Source of the DNA: an uncultured Solirubrobacterales bacterium
Lineage (GTDB): Bacteria > Actinomycetota > Thermoleophilia > Solirubrobacterales > 70-9
DNA length: 64,000 nucleotides
Assembly: GCA_963745915.1 (NCBI GenBank)
Contig: CAVUZA010000001.1
Location: 14,622-78,621 of the forward strand
Reading direction: 5' to 3'
Below, one piece after another: positions 3,603-47,084 of the stretch. The notes below the pieces were generated by a model. It did no database searches. It saw only the letters and a program-made list of their open reading frames with translations, and was not told the DNA's origin. A program made the position numbers and the translations under genes. Each line of letters starts with the position of its first letter. The stretch's first letter is position 1.

Positions 3603-4652
3603 TCAGCCGATGTAGATCGGGGTGCCGACTTCGACCCGGTCGTAGAGATCTTCGACGTCGGGGATCGCCATCCGCACGCAGCCGTGCGAGGCGGCGGTGC
3701 CCAGCGAGGAGGTCTCTTCGGTGCCGTGGATGCCGGCGCCTTCGAAGATCCCCATCCAGCGCGCCTTCAGCGGGTTCGACGGCCCGGGCGGGATCGACTG
3801 CCCGGCGAGGCTGCCGGCCCAGTCGGAGTTGGGCACGTGCCAGGTGGGTTCCACCTGCTTGTCCTGGATGTGGTACAGCCCTTCCGGCGTTTCCAGCCCT
3901 TCCTGGCCGACCGCGACGGTGTAGGTCTTGACCAGCTTCAGGTCCTTCCAGAAGCGCAGGGTGAAGTTGGCGCGGTCGAGGGTGAGGTAGGTCGGGTAGG
4001 AGCCGGCGACTTCCGCGGTCGTTACCTCGGGCGGCACCGAGTGGGTGCGGGCGGCGATCGTGTGGTCGGCTTCGGCGTTGAGCACGGCGGCGCGCAGCTC
4101 GCGGGTGAGCAGCACGTCGCGCAGCTTGCGGCCGTTCTCGGCCTTGACCACGTGCAGCGAGTCGCCGCTCGCTTCGACCGAGGCGTCCTGCGGGTCGCGC
4201 CCGACTTCCTCGGCGACCCTGCGCACGAAGCGGTTGATCGCCTGGCGCGAGTAGGTGACGTCGGCGGCGACCTGCTCGTCGACTTCGCCGCCGGTCACGT
4301 AGCGGACCAGCCGCCCGGGCAGGCCGCCGGCGCGGCTTTCGGCCAGCGCCCGGTCGACCGCGGCGTCGAGGTCGGCGTGCACCTTCAGCGTCCGCCCCGG
4401 CAGCTCCCAGCTCTCGCCGTCGTAGCCGACCCGGACCGAGTGGCGCAGCGGCCGCAGCAGCTTGCCGCGCACCGCCCGCTTGGCTTCCGCCGCGTCCATG
4501 CCGCCGACGTCGACGCCGGCGATCGTCACCCCGGCGGCGATCGTGTCCTTCTGCGAGGAGTCGTAGACGTAGCCGATCCCGGCGGCGATCAGGATCACGC
4601 CGGCCAGCGACAGCAGAGCGATTTGCGTCTTGCGCCCCATCACCTTCACCAA
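3603..4652 (-). CDS. L,D-transpeptidase (YkuD domain) with an N-terminal membrane anchor
   Basis: 349 aa. TM segment IALLSLAGVILIAAGIGYV. C-terminal YkuD catalytic motif GIHGT...SHGCVRM. Confidence 0.9.
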   Translation of the reverse strand: MVKVMGRKTQIALLSLAGVILIAAGIGYVYDSSQKDTIAAGVTIAGVDVGGMDAAEAKRAVRGKLLRPLRHSVRVGYDGESWELPGRTLKVHADLDAAVDRALAESRAGGLPGRLVRYVTGGEVDEQVAADVTYSRQAINRFVRRVAEEVGRDPQDASVEASGDSLHVVKAENGRKLRDVLLTRELRAAVLNAEADHTIAARTHSVPPEVTTAEVAGSYPTYLTLDRANFTLRFWKDLKLVKTYTVAVGQEGLETPEGLYHIQDKQVEPTWHVPNSDWAGSLAGQSIPPGPSNPLKARWMGIFEGAGIHGTEETSSLGTAASHGCVRMAIPDVEDLYDRVEVGTPIYIG

Positions 4653-30147: not shown

Positions 30148-32274
30148 TCACAGTGGTATCGGGTCGGCGGCGCCGGCGCCGAAGCGGCGACGGGCGGCCT
30201 CGAGCAGGGGGCCGAGCGCGGGGGCCTCGAGCGAGCCGTGCTCGCGCAGCAGGGCGAGCACCTCCTCGCGGGCGGCCTCCAGGGTCGCTTCGTCCTCGGG
30301 CAGCTCGGCGACGCGGAAGCGGGGCAGGCCGTGCTGGCGGGTGCCGAGCACCTCGCCCTCGCCGCGCAGCAGCAGGTCGACCTCGGCGAGGCGGAAGCCG
30401 TCGCTCTCCCCCGCCACCGCCGCCAGCCGCCGGCGCGCCAGCTCGCCCGCCTCTTCGGGGAAGAGCAGGCAGACCGACTCGTGCTCGCCGCGGCCGACCC
30501 GGCCGCGCAGCTGGTGCAGCTGGGAGACGCCGTAGCGCTCCGCCCCCTCGATCACCATCACGGTCGCGTTGGCGACGTCGATGCCGACCTCGATCACCGT
30601 CGTCGCCACCAGCACGTCGGTCTCGCCGGCGGCGAAGGCCTCCATCGCCGCCGCCTTCTCGGCCGAGCGCATCTGGCCGTGGATGACGCCGACCCGGAAC
30701 TCGCGCAGCTCGCCGGCGGCGAGGCGCTCGGCCTCGGCCTCGGCCGCCCGTCCGAGGATCTTCTCCGACTCGGAGACCAGCGGGCAGACGACGTAGGCCT
30801 GGCGGCCGGCGCGCAGCTGGTCGCGGATGAAGCCGTAGGCGCCCTGGCGCTCGTCCTCGGCGACGATCCGGGTCGCCACCGGCTTGCGCCCGGAGGGCAG
30901 CTGGTGCAGGGCGGTGGTGTCGAGGTCGCCGTAGGCGGTCAGCGAGAGCGTGCGCGGGATCGGCGTCGCGGTCATGTGCAGGACGTGGGGCGCCATCCCC
31001 TCGACCCCCTTGGCGTCGAGCTTGCGGCGCTGCTCGACGCCGAAGCGGTGCTGCTCGTCGACCACGCAGAGGGCGAGGCGGGCGAAGCGCACGTCGGGCT
31101 CGATCAGGGCGTGGGTGCCGACCAGCAGGCCGAGCTCGCCGCTGGCCAGGCGCTCCAGGTGTTCGCGGCGGCGCGCCGCTTTGGTCGCCCCGGTGAGCAG
31201 CGCGAAGGGGGTCGCGTCGTGGGCCAGCAGCCGTTCCAGGGTCAGCGCGTGCTGCTCGGCGAGGGTCTCGGTCGGCGCCATCAGCACCGCCTGGTAGCCG
31301 GCTTCCAGCGCCCGCAGCATCGAGTAGAGGGCGACGACGGTCTTGCCGCTGCCGACCTCGCCCATCAGCAGACGCTGCATCGGCTCGCCCGAGTCGAGGT
31401 CGGCGTCGATCTCGTCGAAGGCGCGCAGCTGGTCGCGGGTCGGCTCGAAGGGCAGCGACTCGACCCAGAGCCCGACCCGCTCGCCGGGCCGGCCCAGCTT
31501 CGGCGCCGGCCGCGCCGTGCGGTGGGCGCGCTTGCGGGTGGTGAGGATCGCCTGGTAGAGGAAGAGCTCTTCGAAGCGCAGCCGCTCGCGCGCCGCCTCG
31601 ACCTCGTCCGCCGCCTCGGGCAGGTGCATCGCGGCGACCGCGTCGGCCACCCCGGCCAGCCCGCGGCGGGCGCGCAGGGCGGCCGGCAGGCCCTCGACCA
31701 GGTTCGGCGCCAGGCCGACCGCCTGCTCGATCCAGCGGCGCACGTCCTGCGCCCGCAGCCCCTCGCTGAGGGCGTGGACGGGGACCAGGCCGCCCTCGGC
31801 GCTGGGCGCCTCGGCGAACTCGTATTCGCCGACGACGAAGCCGCGCGTGCCCTTGCTGCCGGTGAGCAGCAGCCGCGTGCCGGGGGTCAGCTTGGCGGCG
31901 ACCCAGGGCTGGTTGAACCAGGTCGCCCGGATCGTGCCCGACTCGTCGCCGACCTTGACCCCGACGATGCTCAGCCCGCGGCGGCGGAAGGGGCGCGGGG
32001 CGCTGCCCAGCACCTCGACCGCGACCGTCGCCTGCCGTTTGGGCTCGAGGCCGGCGACCGGGACCACGCTGCGGTCGCGGTGGCGGCGCGGGAAGCGCAG
32101 CAGCAGGTCGCCGACGCTGGCGATCCCGGCCTCGGCGGCGGCCGCGGCGGTCTTCGGGCCGACTCCGTCGAGCGCCTGCAGCGAGGCGTCGAGCGCCGCC
32201 GGCCGCGGCCAGTGCAGCGGCGCCGCCCGCAGCTGGGCCGGGCTAAGCCTGCGCCCATGCCCGAAACCGCGCAT
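30148..32274 (-). CDS. recG: ATP-dependent DNA helicase RecG
   Basis: 708 aa. Wedge/OB N-terminus, LLMGEVGSGKTVVAL (motif I), VVDEQHRFGV (motif II), MTATPIPRTL, QLHQLRGRVGRG. Confidence 0.95.
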   Translation of the reverse strand: MRGFGHGRRLSPAQLRAAPLHWPRPAALDASLQALDGVGPKTAAAAAEAGIASVGDLLLRFPRRHRDRSVVPVAGLEPKRQATVAVEVLGSAPRPFRRRGLSIVGVKVGDESGTIRATWFNQPWVAAKLTPGTRLLLTGSKGTRGFVVGEYEFAEAPSAEGGLVPVHALSEGLRAQDVRRWIEQAVGLAPNLVEGLPAALRARRGLAGVADAVAAMHLPEAADEVEAARERLRFEELFLYQAILTTRKRAHRTARPAPKLGRPGERVGLWVESLPFEPTRDQLRAFDEIDADLDSGEPMQRLLMGEVGSGKTVVALYSMLRALEAGYQAVLMAPTETLAEQHALTLERLLAHDATPFALLTGATKAARRREHLERLASGELGLLVGTHALIEPDVRFARLALCVVDEQHRFGVEQRRKLDAKGVEGMAPHVLHMTATPIPRTLSLTAYGDLDTTALHQLPSGRKPVATRIVAEDERQGAYGFIRDQLRAGRQAYVVCPLVSESEKILGRAAEAEAERLAAGELREFRVGVIHGQMRSAEKAAAMEAFAAGETDVLVATTVIEVGIDVANATVMVIEGAERYGVSQLHQLRGRVGRGEHESVCLLFPEEAGELARRRLAAVAGESDGFRLAEVDLLLRGEGEVLGTRQHGLPRFRVAELPEDEATLEAAREEVLALLREHGSLEAPALGPLLEAARRRFGAGAADPIPL

Positions 32275-32397
32275 TACGGCCCCGCTGCGGGCGACGACGC
32301 GAGCGAACCTCGCGACGCCGCCCGCCCGTTCCCGCGACCAACGAGGCGGTTTCCGCTCCCAGTTACCGCCCAGGGGACGACGGCGGCACGTCCCAGC

Positions 32398-35300
32398 TCA
32401 CAGCATCCATCCCTGAAGTGGCATCCACTTCTGCACTCGCGAATTGCCCGAGTCGAGGACCCAGAAGTCACCATTTTTCGCCAGGGCGATCCGGAGCCAG
32501 GAGCGAGTATCGAACTGCCCTTCGCCGGAGCCGGCCTGCCCGAACTTGGTGATGAATTCGCCAGATTCATTGAATACCTGAATTCGATTGGCTTCTGCAT
32601 CGGCTGCCCAAACGTAGCCCCGATCGTCAACCGCGATATCGGTGATCTCGGTGAACTGGCCGTCGCCGGTGCCCTGAGAGCCGAATCGTTGTAGCACGTT
32701 GCCTTCCTGATCCACGAGCGCAATTCGGCGCCGCCAATGTTCGGCGACCCAGAAGTTGCCGTTCGGCGCCAAGTCGATGGCCCATGGCTTACCCAGGAAG
32801 CCCAGCGAAAGCGATTTGACGTATTCGTCGGCCGGGTTGAACTTATCAATGCGGTCCGCTTCGTAGTCGGCGACCCAGATGTTGTCGCTGGAGTCGACCA
32901 ACACGTCGACCGGGAACGCGACCTGACCGGGTTCCCGCCCGTAGGTCGCCAGGGTGGCGAGCAGCTGCCCGGTGCGGCTGTACTTGACCAGCCGATTTCC
33001 CATCCCACAGACCACGTAGATATCTCCGTTGGAGTTGACCGAGGAGGCAAGCGGGTCGTTGCAAGTCGCGAACTGGCTTAGGTATTCGCCCGATTTCGAG
33101 AAGTTCTGCAAACGGTCGTTACCCCCATCCGCGACCCAGAGCGTCCCATCGGTGGAATCGACCGATACGCCCGCAGCGTATTCGAACTGACCGTCACCGT
33201 GCCCTTCGCTGCCGAATGTGGAGTCATAGGTAGGCGAAAAGCTTCGCCCACTCCACTTCTGCACTCGCGAATTGCCCGAGTCGAGGACCCAGAAGTCACC
33301 ATTTTTCGCCAGGGCGATCCGGAGCCAGGAGCGAGTATCGAACTGCCCTTCGCCGGAGCCGGCCTGCCCGAACTTGGTGATGAATTCGCCAGATTCATTG
33401 AATACCTGAATTCGATTGGCTTCTGCATCGGCTGCCCAAACGTAGCCCCGATCGTCAACCGCGATATCGGTGATCTCGGTGAACTGGCCGTCGCCGGTGC
33501 CCTGAGAGCCGAATCGTTGTAGCACGTTGCCTTCCTGATCCACGAGCGCAATTCGGCGCCGCCAATGTTCGGCGACCCAGAAGTTGCCGTTCGGCGCCAA
33601 GTCGATGGCCCATGGCTTACCCAGGAAGCCCAGCGAAAGCGATTTGACGTATTCGTCGGCCGGGTTGAACTTATCAATGCGGTCCGCTTCGTAGTCGGCG
33701 ACCCAGATGTTGTCGCTGGAGTCGACCAACACGTCGACCGGGAACGCGACCTGACCGGGTTCCCGCCCGTAGGTCGCCAGGGTGGCGAGCAGCTGCCCGG
33801 TGCGGCTGTACTTGACCAGCCGATTTCCCATCCCACAGACCACGTAGATATCTCCGTTGGAGTTGACCGAGGAGGCAAGCGGGTCGTTGCAAGTCGCGAA
33901 CTGGCTTAGGTATTCGCCCGATTTCGAGAAGTTCTGCAAACGGTCGTTACCCCCATCCGCGACCCAGAGCGTCCCATCGGTGGAATCGACCGATACGCCC
34001 GCAGCGTATTCGAACTGACCGTCACCGTGCCCTTCGCTGCCGAATGTGGAGTCATAGGTAGGCGCGCCTATCGTTGTAAACGATTCCGCTTCTCCGACCG
34101 AAACGCCTTCCGGACTCGAGGCCGTAGCCCGATAGTAGTAAGTCGTCTCCGGTTCCAGGCCAGAGACGAAGGTTTGAACATCGATCGGCTGGTCCCCGTC
34201 GCCGATGCCTTCAGGACTACCTGGGGTTGTCACGGCGTGATCGAAGCCGTGCTCGTCACCAAGTGTTTTGATGTCTTCAAAATACGTATCGGCATCGACA
34301 TACTGCGCCTGCCAGGCCGTTTCGTACCCTTGCGGGTTGATCTTCGCCGGAAGCCACGCAGATTCCTCAGCCGGCGCGACTACCGGCGCCGGGTCGATCG
34401 TGGGCTCTTTTCGTTCGGTCCCTGTGACATAGATCGCGCCAGGCGACGTGACCGTCAACGCAGGCGACATGCGAATCGGCGTATCCGTATTCAACCATGG
34501 GCATTCAGAACCAGCCGCCTCGCCAAGATTCGTCGAGCCCCTGACCAGTGCTGGGTTTCCGCCAGCCAGGTTGGTCGATTCCCCGTCCCACTCAATGCTG
34601 CAGTCGACCGGGACCGCCGCCGTCGGACAGGAGACATCAAAACCTGTTTCCCCTGCAGGCCTTAGCCGACCTTCGCTTCCGAAACGCCAGCTCAATGTCG
34701 CCGCAACCGGCAGCCCGCTCATGGTGACTGTGCATTCAGCTCCACCGAGCTCGCTGCACCCGCCAAATGCCCAAGAGGAAATCGACATCGACAGCGGGTG
34801 GCCCGCCGTCGCGCTATTTGAGAACTCGAGCGTCGATTCCGAGCAGGACACTCTGTCCAATTCAGCGTAAATAGTGAATTCATCGCCGCTGGCGGAGATC
34901 GTCGTCCCCGAGTCGAACCGATCCGGCAGACTGCACGTGAGCTGGGACGTTTTGCACAGAGTGGTTCCCCATTCCGGTGTCTGAACCAACTCTGGCCCGA
35001 AGGCACGCCCAGCACTCGATGTTTTGTAGCCGTTGGATGGAATCCTTGCCACAAGTCGATAGCGGTCTGCGAGCGTCGCCGCGCCTTCCGTAGCTTCTTG
35101 TGTCACATGCACAAGCGACGTCCCGCTCGTCGACACCGACCCCGTCGCCTTAGACCATCCAGTCGATCTGTGATATTCGAAATAATATTCGACTTCCGGA
35201 TAAGGCGACGGTTCCACATCGCCCTCCAGGATGACGGTCCCCGTCGATCCGAGTTCCATCGTCGCGGGACCGATGATATTGAGGGTCGGCGGTTCGGGGT

Positions 35301-36435
35301 CGGAAACTTCACAGAAGTTCGAGGTTTCCCCTTCCCCCGTCAAGGTTCGGTAGTTGTCCTTCAGGGGCTCAACAAGCGCTCCGTTGGGAAGCTGTTTCAG
35401 CGGCATGGCGTCGCAATAGTCGGCGATCTCGACGAGACTGAGGAATTTCCCACTTTCGCTCATCACCGGTATTGCCCACCCTCCGCCTGGATACGGATCG
35501 GTAACGCTCTCGGCGTACTCATGCGATGTGCTGTGCGCCAACGATTCCGAAAGAGTTTTGCCGCATCCGGGCTGGTAGCCATACTGAAGGAAGAAGCTGT
35601 AGGCCACGCCGCTTCCATATTCGTGATACGCGCAGAAGCTTCCGGTGAAACCTTCTTCGTAGGTGGTCCCCGGAGGGGCATATATGAGTATCTGCGTATT
35701 CGGGGTCATCTCCCAACCGGTCTTTTCCGCAATGGAAGAGACCTCATGCTGCACATCGAGATGGCCCACGTTGGTTGGAGTGGTGACCGATTTGTCAACG
35801 AAGATGTCGGTTGAAGGATCGAAATGCACGACGTTTGTCGGCTTTTCGGGGTACCTGACCGGGGTATATGAGTTCCAAAAATACTGAGTGAGGATTCCCT
35901 GATAATCGGAGCCCGAAAGGCCTTCGAAGAGAAGGGAGAGGGCCGAACGCACCTGCGAGTAGCTTTCAGCTTTTTCCCAGTCGCTCCCCCAGAACACGAT
36001 GTGGGGTTCAGGTTCCTTCTGCACCCCACCGCCGAAGTAGGTCAGCGTGCTTTCGCTTGACAGACCCGATATGTAATCGTCCCCAAACGTCGGAAGATCG
36101 CTTTTACCCCCGCGCCGACCGGGGCGTAGTTCGGCAGCGGTACCGCGCCCACGTCGAGGCTGAAAATGCACTGCCCTGTTCTCCGCCCAGGACGGCATGG
36201 GAGTACTGTGCCCCAGACCCTTGTGGAAATAGTCGTGCTCGAGGCCCGGCGCCCGCAGCCCGCGGACGTGGGGGTTGACGTTTCGCCGGGTGTGGGGATT
36301 TGCCGAGGCGCCTACGGCAAAGAGCAAAAGGCCGATTGCCGCGGCTCCTATGAAACTCGCAAGTCTTCCTGCGTGCAAATCGATCCGTGCGAAGCTATCG
36401 GGTCTCCCGTGAGCCATCTTCCCCCAACCTTTCAT
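32398..36435 (-). CDS. Large (1345 aa) membrane-anchored/secreted multidomain protein: N-terminal domain of unknown family (SHEYAESVTDP), two FN3-like modules, a Cys-rich region, and two identical six-bladed NHL beta-propellers
   Basis: Intact ORF. N-terminal hydrophobic anchor FIGAAAIGLLLFAVGA. YYFEY and TTYYYRA FN3-like signatures. 12 NHL-type blades (…GQF..P.GVAVD..G.lWVAD..N.RIQ.F…). G+C is lower than the flanks. Confidence 0.8.
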   Translation of the reverse strand: MKGWGKMAHGRPDSFARIDLHAGRLASFIGAAAIGLLLFAVGASANPHTRRNVNPHVRGLRAPGLEHDYFHKGLGHSTPMPSWAENRAVHFQPRRGRGTAAELRPGRRGGKSDLPTFGDDYISGLSSESTLTYFGGGVQKEPEPHIVFWGSDWEKAESYSQVRSALSLLFEGLSGSDYQGILTQYFWNSYTPVRYPEKPTNVVHFDPSTDIFVDKSVTTPTNVGHLDVQHEVSSIAEKTGWEMTPNTQILIYAPPGTTYEEGFTGSFCAYHEYGSGVAYSFFLQYGYQPGCGKTLSESLAHSTSHEYAESVTDPYPGGGWAIPVMSESGKFLSLVEIADYCDAMPLKQLPNGALVEPLKDNYRTLTGEGETSNFCEVSDPEPPTLNIIGPATMELGSTGTVILEGDVEPSPYPEVEYYFEYHRSTGWSKATGSVSTSGTSLVHVTQEATEGAATLADRYRLVARIPSNGYKTSSAGRAFGPELVQTPEWGTTLCKTSQLTCSLPDRFDSGTTISASGDEFTIYAELDRVSCSESTLEFSNSATAGHPLSMSISSWAFGGCSELGGAECTVTMSGLPVAATLSWRFGSEGRLRPAGETGFDVSCPTAAVPVDCSIEWDGESTNLAGGNPALVRGSTNLGEAAGSECPWLNTDTPIRMSPALTVTSPGAIYVTGTERKEPTIDPAPVVAPAEESAWLPAKINPQGYETAWQAQYVDADTYFEDIKTLGDEHGFDHAVTTPGSPEGIGDGDQPIDVQTFVSGLEPETTYYYRATASSPEGVSVGEAESFTTIGAPTYDSTFGSEGHGDGQFEYAAGVSVDSTDGTLWVADGGNDRLQNFSKSGEYLSQFATCNDPLASSVNSNGDIYVVCGMGNRLVKYSRTGQLLATLATYGREPGQVAFPVDVLVDSSDNIWVADYEADRIDKFNPADEYVKSLSLGFLGKPWAIDLAPNGNFWVAEHWRRRIALVDQEGNVLQRFGSQGTGDGQFTEITDIAVDDRGYVWAADAEANRIQVFNESGEFITKFGQAGSGEGQFDTRSWLRIALAKNGDFWVLDSGNSRVQKWSGRSFSPTYDSTFGSEGHGDGQFEYAAGVSVDSTDGTLWVADGGNDRLQNFSKSGEYLSQFATCNDPLASSVNSNGDIYVVCGMGNRLVKYSRTGQLLATLATYGREPGQVAFPVDVLVDSSDNIWVADYEADRIDKFNPADEYVKSLSLGFLGKPWAIDLAPNGNFWVAEHWRRRIALVDQEGNVLQRFGSQGTGDGQFTEITDIAVDDRGYVWAADAEANRIQVFNESGEFITKFGQAGSGEGQFDTRSWLRIALAKNGDFWVLDSGNSRVQKWMPLQGWML
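32424..34064. repeat. Perfect tandem duplication: two identical 813-bp units (32424-33236 and 33252-34064) with a period of 828 bp, inside the NHL gene
   Basis: Raw lines and all overlapping ORF translations are identical at an offset of 828 (for example ORFs 32737..33081 = 33565..33909, and 33199 vs 34027). The units are separated by a 15-nt junction. 828 = 276 codons. Confidence 0.95.
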
Positions 36436-36603
36436 GTGTTCCCTGCTCGGCTCGAAAGCCGACTCTGAACGAACCGGTCCGACCCTAGACCGCCAGGTCA
36501 GCGTCGACTACACCTATATGGGGGACTTGACGATTGCCACTGCGCCATTTGGGGCGCGAGTTTGCAGAGGAGCGGCCGCAGCGGATACCGAGCATGACCG
36601 CTG

Positions 36604-38235
36604 CTACTGGGCGGCGAGCAGCCACCACCAGCTCGGCTGGCCGCCCTCGTGGGTCTCGATCTCGACCCCGTCGGGGACGTGGGTGTCGAGCTCCCCGAGC
36701 CCGATCGGGGCGCCCTCGCCGGCGATCACGGTGACGATCTCCGCCCCCTCGGCAAGCCGCTCGACGGTGGCGGCGAAGGTCGTCCCCGCCCCGCCCCAGG
36801 CGACGATCTCGCCTTCGGCGAAGCCGACCGCGTCGCCCTTGCGGAAGCGGCCCTGGGCGTCGTCGCGGGCGGCCGGGGCGACGCCGCCGTTGGCGATCGA
36901 GCCGAGCGCCTGCTCGAGCCGCTCGGCGTTCTCGGCGGCCGGCGCGTCGGGGTCGAGCTCGACCAGGGTCAGCAGGCTTTTCTGCAGCGAGGTGGCGGCG
37001 AGGACGCGGGCCGGCTTCTCGGAGAGCTCGCAGGCGCGCTCGGCGGCCATCACCACGTTCTTGGAGCTGGGGAAGACGAGGACTTCGTCGGCCGGCACCT
37101 CGTGGATCCCGGCCAGCAGCTCGTAAGTCGAGGGGTTGAGCGTCTCGCCGCCGGGGACGACGTGGGCGCCGAGCTCGGCGAAGAGCCGCTCCAGGCCCTC
37201 CCCCGCCGCCACCGCGACGGCGCCGGTGCGGGCCGACTCGAGCCGGGCGCTGCGTTCGGCGATCTGCTCGCGCATGTCGGCGACGTCGAGGTTGGTCACC
37301 TCGCCGGCGCCCTCGAAGAGCGCCACCGCGGCCTCGGGCTCGTCGGTGTGGACGTGGACCTTGAGCGTCGCCTCGTCGCCGACGACGAGCACCGAGTCGC
37401 CCAGCCCCTCGAGCCGCGGCAGGTAGTCGCGGCTGTTGAGGCCGGCGCCGGCGACGATGAAGTTGGTGCAGTAGCGGAAGCGGCTGTCGGCGTGCTGGGG
37501 CTGGCTCAGCTGCGGCGCCTGCTGGTGGTCGACCGCGGGCGCCTCGGCGCCGTCGCCGCGCAGGCCGGCGACGACCCCGGCGAGGATCAGGACCAGGCCG
37601 TAGCCGCCGGCGTCGACCACGCCCGACTCGCGCAGCACGTCGAGCTGCTCGGGGGTGCGCTCGACCGCCCGCTGGCCGTCCTCGATCGCCCGCTCCAGCA
37701 CCTCGGCGAGGACCGCGTCCTGCTCGGCCTCGTCAACGCCCTTGTCGAGCCGCTGCTTGCCGGCCTCGAGGTGGGCGAGCTGGCGGGCGATCGAGTGGGC
37801 CATCTCGCGGAAGACGGTCAGCATCGTGCCCTCGGCCGGCTCGCGCACCGAGTCGTAGGCGGCGTCGGCGGCGCTGGCGAAGGCCGAGGCGACCAGCACC
37901 GGGTCGATCAGCTCGCCCGGGCGGCTGGCCAGCTCCTCGGCGGCGCCGCGCACGATCTGGCTGAGGATCACGCCCGAGTTGCCGCGCGCGCCCATCAGCG
38001 CCGCCCGGGCCAGGGCCTGGACCAGCTGGGTGCGGCCGACCTCGTCGACCTCGAGCCCGTCGAGCCGGTCGAGCTCCTCCATCACCGCCTTCATCGTCAT
38101 CGCCATGTTGTCGCCCGTGTCGCCGTCGGCGACCGGGAAGACGTTGAGGTCGTTGACCTCCTGGCGACGCGCCTCCAGGTATGCGTAGGCAGAACTGACT
38201 ACGCGCCGGAAGCGCACGATCGAGGGATCGGGCAT
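36604..38235 (-). CDS. DAK2 domain-containing protein (YloV-like)
   Basis: 543 aa. VFPVADGDTGDNMAMT, ARGNSGVILSQ. It occupies the conserved position between rpmB and recG. Confidence 0.88.
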   Translation of the reverse strand: MPDPSIVRFRRVVSSAYAYLEARRQEVNDLNVFPVADGDTGDNMAMTMKAVMEELDRLDGLEVDEVGRTQLVQALARAALMGARGNSGVILSQIVRGAAEELASRPGELIDPVLVASAFASAADAAYDSVREPAEGTMLTVFREMAHSIARQLAHLEAGKQRLDKGVDEAEQDAVLAEVLERAIEDGQRAVERTPEQLDVLRESGVVDAGGYGLVLILAGVVAGLRGDGAEAPAVDHQQAPQLSQPQHADSRFRYCTNFIVAGAGLNSRDYLPRLEGLGDSVLVVGDEATLKVHVHTDEPEAAVALFEGAGEVTNLDVADMREQIAERSARLESARTGAVAVAAGEGLERLFAELGAHVVPGGETLNPSTYELLAGIHEVPADEVLVFPSSKNVVMAAERACELSEKPARVLAATSLQKSLLTLVELDPDAPAAENAERLEQALGSIANGGVAPAARDDAQGRFRKGDAVGFAEGEIVAWGGAGTTFAATVERLAEGAEIVTVIAGEGAPIGLGELDTHVPDGVEIETHEGGQPSWWWLLAAQ

Positions 38236-45981: not shown

Positions 45982-47084
45982 CACCACTCCCGGAAGCGGG
46001 TCTCGATCAGCGTGTCCTCCGCCCGCGGGTCGAGCGGCTCGGTGCGGCCGCCGCCGAGCAGGAGCGGGGCGACGAAGACGCGCGCCTCGTCGACCTGGCC
46101 GGCGGCGGCGAAGGCGGCGGCCAGGGTGCGGCCCCCCTCGAGCAAGAGGCTGGTGAGGCCGCGGCGGCCGAGCTCGGCGAGGGCGGCCTCGACCCCGTCG
46201 GCGACCAGCACCTCCGCCCCGGCGTCGCGCAGGGGCGCGGCGTCGGCCTCGGGCGCGACGACGACGAGCAGCGGCGACTCGTCCAGCGTCGCCAGCAGCC
46301 GCGAGTCGAGCGGCGTCCGCGCCCGGCGGTCGAAAACCACCCGCAGCGGCTGCCGCACCCCCGTCCCCCCCGTTCCGGTGCGCTTTTTGCTCTCCATAGG
46401 TACATAAGGCGCACCGGAAGCTTCGGGGCGGGCGGTTAGCAGCGGGTCGTCGGCGAGGACGGTGCCGATGCCGACCGCGATCGCGTCGGATTCGGCGCGC
46501 CAGCGATGGACCAGCTCGCGGCTGGGCTCGCCGGAGATCCAGGGCGAGTCGCCCGGCGCGGTGGCGGTCTCGCCGTCGAGCGAGATCGCCAGCTTCAGCG
46601 TCACCAGCGGCAGGCCGGTGCGGGCGTGCTTGCGGAAGGGCTGGTTGAGCAGCCGCGCGGCGCTCGCCTCCTCGCCCGCGGCCAGCTCGACCGCGACGCC
46701 GCCGTCGCGGAGGATGCCCGGTCCGCGGCCGGACGCCTTCTCGCTGGGGTCGTCGGAGGCGACCACGACGCGGGCGACGCCGGCCTCGAGCAGCGCCTCG
46801 GTGCAGGGCGGCTGGCGGCCGCTGTGGGCGCAGGGCTCGAGCGTCACGTAGATCGTCGCCCCGGCCGGGTCCGCGCCGCGCGCAGCGCAGTCGGCCAGCG
46901 CCGCGCGCTCGGCGTGCAGGCCGCCGAGCTCGGTGTGCCAGCCCTCGCCGATCGTCTCGCCGTCGCGGACGAGGACGGCGCCGACCAGGGGGTTGGGGCT
47001 GACCCGTCCCCGGCCGCGCTCGGCCAGCTCGAGCGCCCGCTGGAGATGCTCCCGATCAGTGCCTGTGAGCTGGGGATTCATCAT
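45981..47084 (-). CDS. ribD: Bifunctional diaminohydroxyphosphoribosylaminopyrimidine deaminase / 5-amino-6-(5-phosphoribosylamino)uracil reductase
   Basis: NPLVGAVLV, HAERAAL, TLEPCAHSGRQPPC, then the reductase half. Tandem ATGs at 47084 and 47081; the track start at 47099 is TTG. The gene contains the 47-nt element at 46373-46419. Confidence 0.92.
   Translation of the reverse strand: MMNPQLTGTDREHLQRALELAERGRGRVSPNPLVGAVLVRDGETIGEGWHTELGGLHAERAALADCAARGADPAGATIYVTLEPCAHSGRQPPCTEALLEAGVARVVVASDDPSEKASGRGPGILRDGGVAVELAAGEEASAARLLNQPFRKHARTGLPLVTLKLAISLDGETATAPGDSPWISGEPSRELVHRWRAESDAIAVGIGTVLADDPLLTARPEASGAPYVPMESKKRTGTGGTGVRQPLRVVFDRRARTPLDSRLLATLDESPLLVVVAPEADAAPLRDAGAEVLVADGVEAALAELGRRGLTSLLLEGGRTLAAAFAAAGQVDEARVFVAPLLLGGGRTEPLDPRAEDTLIETRFREW
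46373..46419. repeat. Family-2 47-nt palindromic element, embedded in frame in ribD
   Basis: TTCCGGTGCGCTTTTTGCTCTCCATAGGTACATAAGGCGCACCGGAA. Its termini match the copy at 54064-54110. It is a local AT-rich patch encoding SGAPYVPMESKKRTGT. Confidence 0.8.

Follow-up and report, generated by a model that had tools for sequence, protein, structure and literature searches.

Tandem domains that are nearly 100% identical at the DNA level have been described in the Periscope Proteins, where they are attributed to intragenic recombination (Whelan et al. 2021, PMC8201768). Near-identical repeats have also been described in bacterial propeller proteins, where they are common in Actinobacteria and are ascribed to ongoing amplification and homogenisation (Pereira & Lupas 2022, PMC9218822; Afanasieva et al. 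2019, PMC6805158). The locus described here lies in a 64,000-nucleotide (nt) stretch of DNA, called the window throughout, from an uncultured Solirubrobacterales bacterium (GenBank assembly GCA_963745915.1, contig CAVUZA010000001.1). It encodes P0001, an apparently secreted multidomain protein of 1345 amino acids (aa) that ends in two DNA-identical NHL propellers of 270 residues each, six residues apart. These twins are real and represent a known kind of repeat evolution, the closest cases being surface proteins with DNA-identical tandem domains. Their perfect identity probably stems from gene conversion, that is, from concerted evolution of a two-propeller module, and this explanation is held with moderate confidence.

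Like the Periscope Proteins (PMC8201768), P0001 carries whole folded domains head to tail in one secreted protein and breaks the rule that adjacent domains diverge. It has the high-identity whole-domain tandem array (two copies, 100% over 813 nt) but lacks the elongated anchored stalk, since its globular propellers lie at the extreme C-terminus with only 8 residues after them. Whereas the Periscope repeats are small stalk domains that serve as a length-setting rod, P0001 has two 270-aa propellers with a unique linker, which likely act as a C-terminal binding module. Repeat number in the Periscope Proteins differs between strains, whereas the window gene is known from two copies in one assembly.

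The recently amplified propellers of the earlier surveys (PMC9218822, PMC6805158) repeat single or a few blades, whereas the repeat in P0001 is a whole six-bladed propeller; the words NHL and gene conversion are absent from the main text of PMC9218822. The same six-bladed fold is found in the NHL domains of TRIM71/Lin41 and in Drosophila Thin (PDB 8j72, 7qrx and 6xg7; TM score 0.89-0.90, root-mean-square deviation (rmsd) 1.7-1.9 A, 29-32% identity). Those propellers occur singly in intracellular eukaryotic proteins and bind RNA or protein, whereas the window protein is bacterial, secreted and doubled. Also similar are actinobacterial DUF6531/Rhs-type proteins and other large secreted proteins with at least two tandem NHL propellers, such as P0042, P0051 and P0139, from Solirubrobacterales-type soil metagenome-assembled genomes (MAGs), which have the same propeller type (37-53% identity), short linkers and DNA-identical twins. 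They differ in their N- and C-terminal parts (DUF6531, YD repeats, LamG), whereas P0001 has a rare N-terminal domain and stops 8 residues past propeller 2. An identity with ScyF, the scytonemin NHL PEP-CTERM protein (NCBIfam NF035926), was considered and rejected: the score of 276.7 bits, over four partial stretches, is below the curated cut-off of 350 and reflects generic NHL similarity alone.

An exact in-frame propeller duplication

Comparison of the window with itself at an offset of 828 nt gives an exact run of 813 nt, in which 32424-33236 equals 33252-34064. The offset corresponds to 276 codons and keeps the frame, and the protein-level identical runs are aa 792-1061 and aa 1068-1337. 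An earlier note on this DNA had claimed two identical 813-nt units of period 828 joined by a 15-nt frame-keeping junction, and both claims are borne out, with the junction at 33237-33251. The strand, which that note did not give, is minus for both units, and both lie inside a single open reading frame (ORF). The features concerned are as follows.

32398-36435, minus strand: coding sequence of the secreted multidomain protein P0001, 1345 aa (ORF list and translation), with the stop codon at 32398-32400
33252-34064, minus strand: propeller copy 1, N-proximal, aa 792-1061, from PTYDSTFG to SRVQKW (exact identity with copy 2, Pfam NHL, AlphaFold2, Foldseek)
33237-33251, minus strand: 15-nt in-frame junction, linker SGRSFS, aa 1062-1067 (offset comparison)
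32424-33236, minus strand: propeller copy 2, C-proximal, aa 1068-1337 (exact identity, Pfam NHL, AlphaFold2, Foldseek)

Outside the 813-nt run, identity falls at once to the chance level of 5-11 matches per 30 nt. A repeat search of the window recovers this pair too, with the length of the match capped at 300 nt. Whole-genome self-BLAST places the propeller unit at only two sites in the 2.64-Mb, 3-contig genome, and Tandem Repeats Finder, run with a longest period of 500, did not report the 828-nt-period repeat. The blades within one unit are diverged, the best likeness in a repeat search of the window being about 74% over a 38-nt stretch.

That the unit is a whole six-bladed NHL propeller, as had also been proposed from the sequence, is upheld by Pfam, AlphaFold2 and Foldseek. 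The Pfam NHL family (PF01436) matches with an E value of 7e-49, and each unit has six repeats in a closed ring. Given an 18-sequence alignment, AlphaFold2 modelled aa 786-1345 with a mean pLDDT of 91.5 and a pTM of 0.57. The model shows 24 strands per unit, with the unit's first strand completing the last blade (1+3 closure), and Foldseek aligns the unit with the TRIM71 NHL domain at a TM score of 0.90 and an rmsd of 1.7 A over 277 alignment columns. As modelled, a unit corresponds exactly to one six-bladed NHL propeller that is complete and closed. The duplication is in frame, and its borders are precise to the domain.

The junction, AAAAGCTTCGCCCAC on the plus strand, occurs once in the window and, together with two partial edge codons, encodes the linker SGRSFS. 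It has no match to either flank. A one-step tandem duplication leaves an identity run of at least one period and a junction made of duplicated flank. Here the run of 813 nt is shorter than the period of 828 nt, and the 15-nt junction shares no homology with either flank, at odds with a simple recent tandem duplication. Homology of the junction to its own flanks was sought further, and the sole likeness, GGCGAAGC to GGAGAAGC, is out of frame and was treated as chance. A genome-wide search for a template found merely 14-15-nt matches at C2:1515174 and C2:1861083, with none near the locus; by rough estimate these two matches are probably chance.

The junction and the first 4 nt of copy 2 (33233-33248) form a near-palindrome with a 6-bp stem, GGCGAAAAGCTTCGCC on the plus strand, which reads GGCGAA-GCTT-TTCGCC on the coding strand and contains the HindIII site AAGCTT. 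Such a site is expected to be uncommon at 72% GC. A kinship of this near-palindrome with the 47-nt hairpin repeat at 46373-46419 was considered and dropped, the two sequences being unrelated. The near-palindrome could be a snap-back templated filler, which would suit a brand-new duplication in this lineage: a segment copied once, with a 15-nt filler placed at the joint by end-joining or template-switch, and no time to diverge. Zero differences over 813 nt, one-propeller architecture in the closest full-length homologues and the recent acquisition of the gene itself also agree with such an origin. On the other side, a 6-bp stem is possible by chance, domain-exact borders with an in-frame filler would need to have arisen independently in at least 14 genes, and linkers common to diverged sister genes, together with mismatches confined to the edges of other pairs, show that older duplicates have been homogenised (see below). 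A brand-new duplication is regarded as rather unlikely, though as the likeliest of the alternatives.

Twin propellers in related genes and the evidence for their homogenisation

Two homology searches, among them one with the double-propeller region as the query, retrieved 158 proteins (157 besides P0001), which were scanned for self-identity. In fourteen of the 157, copies spaced by one period are 100% identical over a stretch of 200 aa or more. All 14 arrays have about 2.0 copies, never three or more. The identical blocks share their borders, starting at (P)TYxSxFG and ending at RVQRW, and the linkers are 1-13 aa long apart from one case of 53 aa. Identity between twin units is bimodal, with one class at about 98-100% and the rest beginning at about 89% and falling to a median of 62%. 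The twin cases found through protein comparison are in frame by construction.

At the DNA level, 11 twin loci have exact runs of 667-855 nt and short unique linkers. Six of these have exact runs of 814, 809, 809, 717, 855 and 851 nt with periods of 972, 843, 828, 846, 873 and 867 nt, respectively. Their linkers, in frame and different at every locus, measure 16-158 nt, and a single synonymous mismatch is present in the 717-nt locus. One twin pattern recurs in a same-genus genome, and twin loci occur in both ENA and JGI assemblies. The arrangement of two DNA-identical 270-residue propellers six residues apart recurs: among uncultured soil Solirubrobacterales, many large secreted proteins have it. 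As a rule, neighbouring domains are not identical, since identical ones can misfold into each other. The loci offer a natural data set on how recombination homogenises whole domains and on the folding of tandem identical propellers, and the commonness of exact whole-propeller twins in this lineage is of wider interest.

In one of these proteins, P0044 (L019:4001-8008, with the pattern also in same-genus L007), the first of two 814-nt identical propellers lies apparently inside the last FN3-like domain, flanked by the N-terminal and C-terminal halves of that domain. In a by-eye alignment with P0001, the 158-nt linker encodes the C-terminal half of the FN3-like domain. The arrangement may be either a nested domain insertion or the outcome of a later precise loss.

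Evidence for homogenisation comes from the sister genes L021 and L045. Each has a period of 828 nt, and their homologous linkers have a 15/15-nt identical core. The units of the two genes differ from each other at 109 of 694 positions (16%), while within either gene there are no substitutions, so that likeness within genes exceeds likeness between genes, as in concerted evolution. The shared linker and the between-gene divergence indicate that the doubling predates the split of the two genes and that the copies were homogenised later. On the strength of these alignments, concerted evolution is demonstrated in at least one sister-gene pair. The linker of L021 is also identical at 13 of 19 nt to the sequence after copy 2, so the originally duplicated segment was longer than today's identical part.

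The sole within-gene change in L045 (P0046) is a 1-nt indel, an extra A in copy 2 at about coding-sequence nt 4487 (nt 3659 in copy 1). It shifts the frame and truncates the called protein, and the sequence beyond it is called as a gene of its own. The extra A may be a homopolymer error of long reads, or the indel may be real and inactivating.

Four further pairs, L023-L026, have a DNA identity of 98.9-99.8%, and all their mismatches fall in the outer 3-22% of the block (positions 41-128 of 795; 803-814 of 825; 166 and 176 of 798; 3-32 and 767-771 of 783), leaving perfect cores of 621-802 nt. In P0079, which is a mosaic, a core of 227 aa is perfect and the ends have diverged. Such marks are expected of gene conversion between tandem paralogues, whose tracts can span the homologous core but fail to resolve within a few tens of bases of non-homologous sequence. 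The edge-only or mosaic pattern is seen in these five cases, and the window pair has zero differences. The edge differences in L023, L025 and L026 lie in propeller-closing strands, mostly at codon positions 1 and 2, and could be due to selection for divergent closing strands instead of neutral escape from conversion.

The proposed history of P0001 starts from the doubling itself, which is real and in frame and comprises a complete six-bladed NHL propeller of a secreted protein. Homologous recombination between the copies would then act non-reciprocally, one copy overwriting the other. Such conversion would replace the whole homologous core and stop at the non-homologous linker and flanks, and the 15-nt linker would be the unconverted part. 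By analogy with the sister genes and the edge-mismatched pairs, we infer that the same process, and not a fresh duplication, probably operated at the window gene. The earlier note had left three readings of the zero divergence side by side; gene conversion gains from the sister genes L021/L045 and the edge-only mismatches, a simple recent tandem duplication loses through the junction unlike its flanks, and an assembly artefact loses through the intact ORF, the in-frame tandem duplications elsewhere in the genome and the presence of twins in both ENA and JGI assemblies. For annotation, zero divergence does not date such a duplication.

The four closest full-length homologues, P0002-P0005, have 39-44% identity, 1022-1052 aa and one propeller. 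They align with P0001 over the full length apart from a gap that equals one unit exactly, and they keep the short tail. Since these homologues have single propellers with the same tail, the second copy is lineage-specific, and one propeller is the older state of the P0001 architecture. Closer orthologues of P0001 were absent from 40 related genomes and from the species-representative collection, the exact P0001 protein was found in no other record in a look-up, and the 33-nt unit-to-tail pattern had no match among metagenome contigs.

At the window locus, several points weigh against gene conversion. A pair with zero differences looks the same after conversion as after a brand-new duplication, and the window linker has no detectable flank homology, unlike the linker of L021. 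A two-propeller orthologue of the window gene was not found, the closest full-length homologues being single-propeller, so an old duplication is not shown at the window locus. The comparison set also has its biases: the query itself is two-copy, so that the sample over-represents two-propeller proteins, and 8 of the 11 comparison loci come from one ENA assembly series with contig_N names, for which a shared pipeline effect is conceivable.

Another view is that the twins are an artefact of assembly or polishing, with truly one copy, more than two, or two slightly different copies made identical by consensus polishing. The genome is a 3-contig MAG, and its relatives are MFD MAGs whose contig_N names are assumed to mean long-read assemblies. 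The window junction is nevertheless unique and in frame inside an intact 4-kb ORF, and the same twin pattern is present in JGI assemblies. A repeat of 1.6 kb is normally spanned by long reads, so its copy number is usually well determined. Self-BLAST of the genome further revealed two near-perfect in-frame tandem duplications with unique linkers of 21 and 34 nt, respectively, in low-GC genes apparently for secreted proteins.

G000:C2:2506225-2507427: tandem duplication L015, 591 nt with 100% identity, period 612, in a 1754-aa RTX/TSP3/LamG protein, 64% GC
G000:C2:1141097-1141992: tandem duplication L016, 431 nt with one mismatch, period 465, in a 661-aa GH26 protein, 52% GC

In these two, as in the window, the identical run is shorter than the period. 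All three duplications ascertained from DNA are in frame, which would occur in 1 of 27 cases if the frame were random, and this argues for real, selected events. An artefact is considered very improbable, and repeats of this kind in long-read MAGs are probably genuine.

It has also been suggested that the locus varies in copy number. In a contingency-like locus, RecA-dependent unequal exchange would switch between one, two and three propellers, and the variation in valency would be exploited. Perfect 813-nt direct repeats are established substrates for recombination, and length variation of this kind is seen in the Periscope Proteins (PMC8201768). The absence of a third copy from all 14 analogous near-identical arrays and the position of the propellers as a terminal globular module, not a stalk, speak against it, making this an improbable account. 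Perfect 813-nt direct repeats inevitably give rise to copy-number variation, but there is no indication that it is exploited.

The identity itself might instead be selected, if the propeller modules of Solirubrobacterales were functional only as an exactly matched pair, through exchange of the closing (velcro) strand or through a symmetric ligand. In the AlphaFold2 model, the last c-strand of propeller 1 and the first strand of propeller 2 lie 6 residues apart, and the intra-blade c-d turns have 5. Strand exchange is conceivable because the linker is about as long as an intra-blade turn. Were the pair required to match, selection would favour conversion and hold the number at exactly two copies, and the mostly non-synonymous edge differences in relatives would point to the strands that determine the closing partner of each propeller. 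This proposal is speculative and seems doubtful for now.

The host protein and its genomic setting

P0001 is ordered as signal peptide, N-terminal domain, Cys-containing middle region, FN3-like domain, propeller, 6-aa linker, propeller and 8-aa tail. The parts outside the propellers are as follows.

36298-36435, minus strand: signal-peptide-like N-terminus, a hydrophobic stretch to GASA and then NP (from reading the translation)
35236-36258, minus strand: conserved N-terminal domain, aa 60-400 (alignment with homologues)
34396-35235, minus strand: Cys-containing middle region, about aa 401-680, conserved in homologues (invariant Cys columns in the alignment)
34065-34395, minus strand: FN3-like domain, about aa 681-791, directly upstream of propeller 1 (weak Pfam Pur_ac_phosph_N match and homologue alignment)
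32401-32423, minus strand: C-terminal tail MPLQGWML, 8 aa (alignment; the single-propeller homologues keep equivalents, such as RSAGGWTL and CCPGGWTL)

The start of P0001 may be the second ATG, at 36417, which has the better Shine-Dalgarno sequence. The N-terminal domain of about 340 aa contains invariant DYFHKGLGH, FCxxH and SHEYAE (SHEYAExVxD) motifs and has no sequence match in Pfam, NCBIfam or the PDB. Its AlphaFold2 model, from a 7-sequence alignment, has a pLDDT of 41.6 and is unusable. Among the database matches examined, the domain is almost confined to Solirubrobacterales-type MAGs, many of them named MFD. It has invariant His, Glu, Asp and Cys residues in P0001; it may be catalytic, and it may be a metal-dependent hydrolase. 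A wall-anchor motif was not seen on reading the translation. Extracellular bacterial NHL propellers are binding modules, and the two propellers of P0001 are inferred to be kept for greater valency or reach of such a module.

The gene lies between two conserved genes, which form the borders of a low-GC island.

36604-38235, minus strand: dak2/fakA-like gene, upstream neighbour and left island border (Pfam Dak2, FakA-like_M, FakA-like_C)
30148-32274, minus strand: recG, downstream neighbour and right island border (Pfam RecG_wedge, DEAD, Helicase_C)

The propeller gene has 59% GC, compared with 70-77% in the adjacent genes and a genome mean of 71%; 2-kb windows below 62% GC make up 1.6% of the genome. 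The dak2/fakA-like orthologues are 83-89% identical in congeners. In 7 same-genus genomes the dak2/fakA-like gene and recG abut or overlap, which indicates that the whole 4.3 kb is an inserted island. Judged by composition and gene order, the propeller gene is a horizontally acquired 4.3-kb low-GC island and a recent acquisition. For this genome, the locus marks a newly gained surface or binding protein within the conserved dak2-recG pair.

The island borders are 32275-32397 and 36436-36603, and a heptamer, GCAGCGG, lies just inside each. A GTAATG stop/start overlap before recG is kept, as in congener L038, and the true recG start may be a few codons upstream of 32274.

Other repeats were seen elsewhere in the genome. 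At G000:C2:37686-74573 there is a block of 3-5-kb repeats with 91-96% identity, which may represent either several large paralogous genes or one giant repetitive gene. Three 100% identical 1.39-kb copies, at C2:251650, C2:1830469 and C2:1865501, are insertion-sequence-like.

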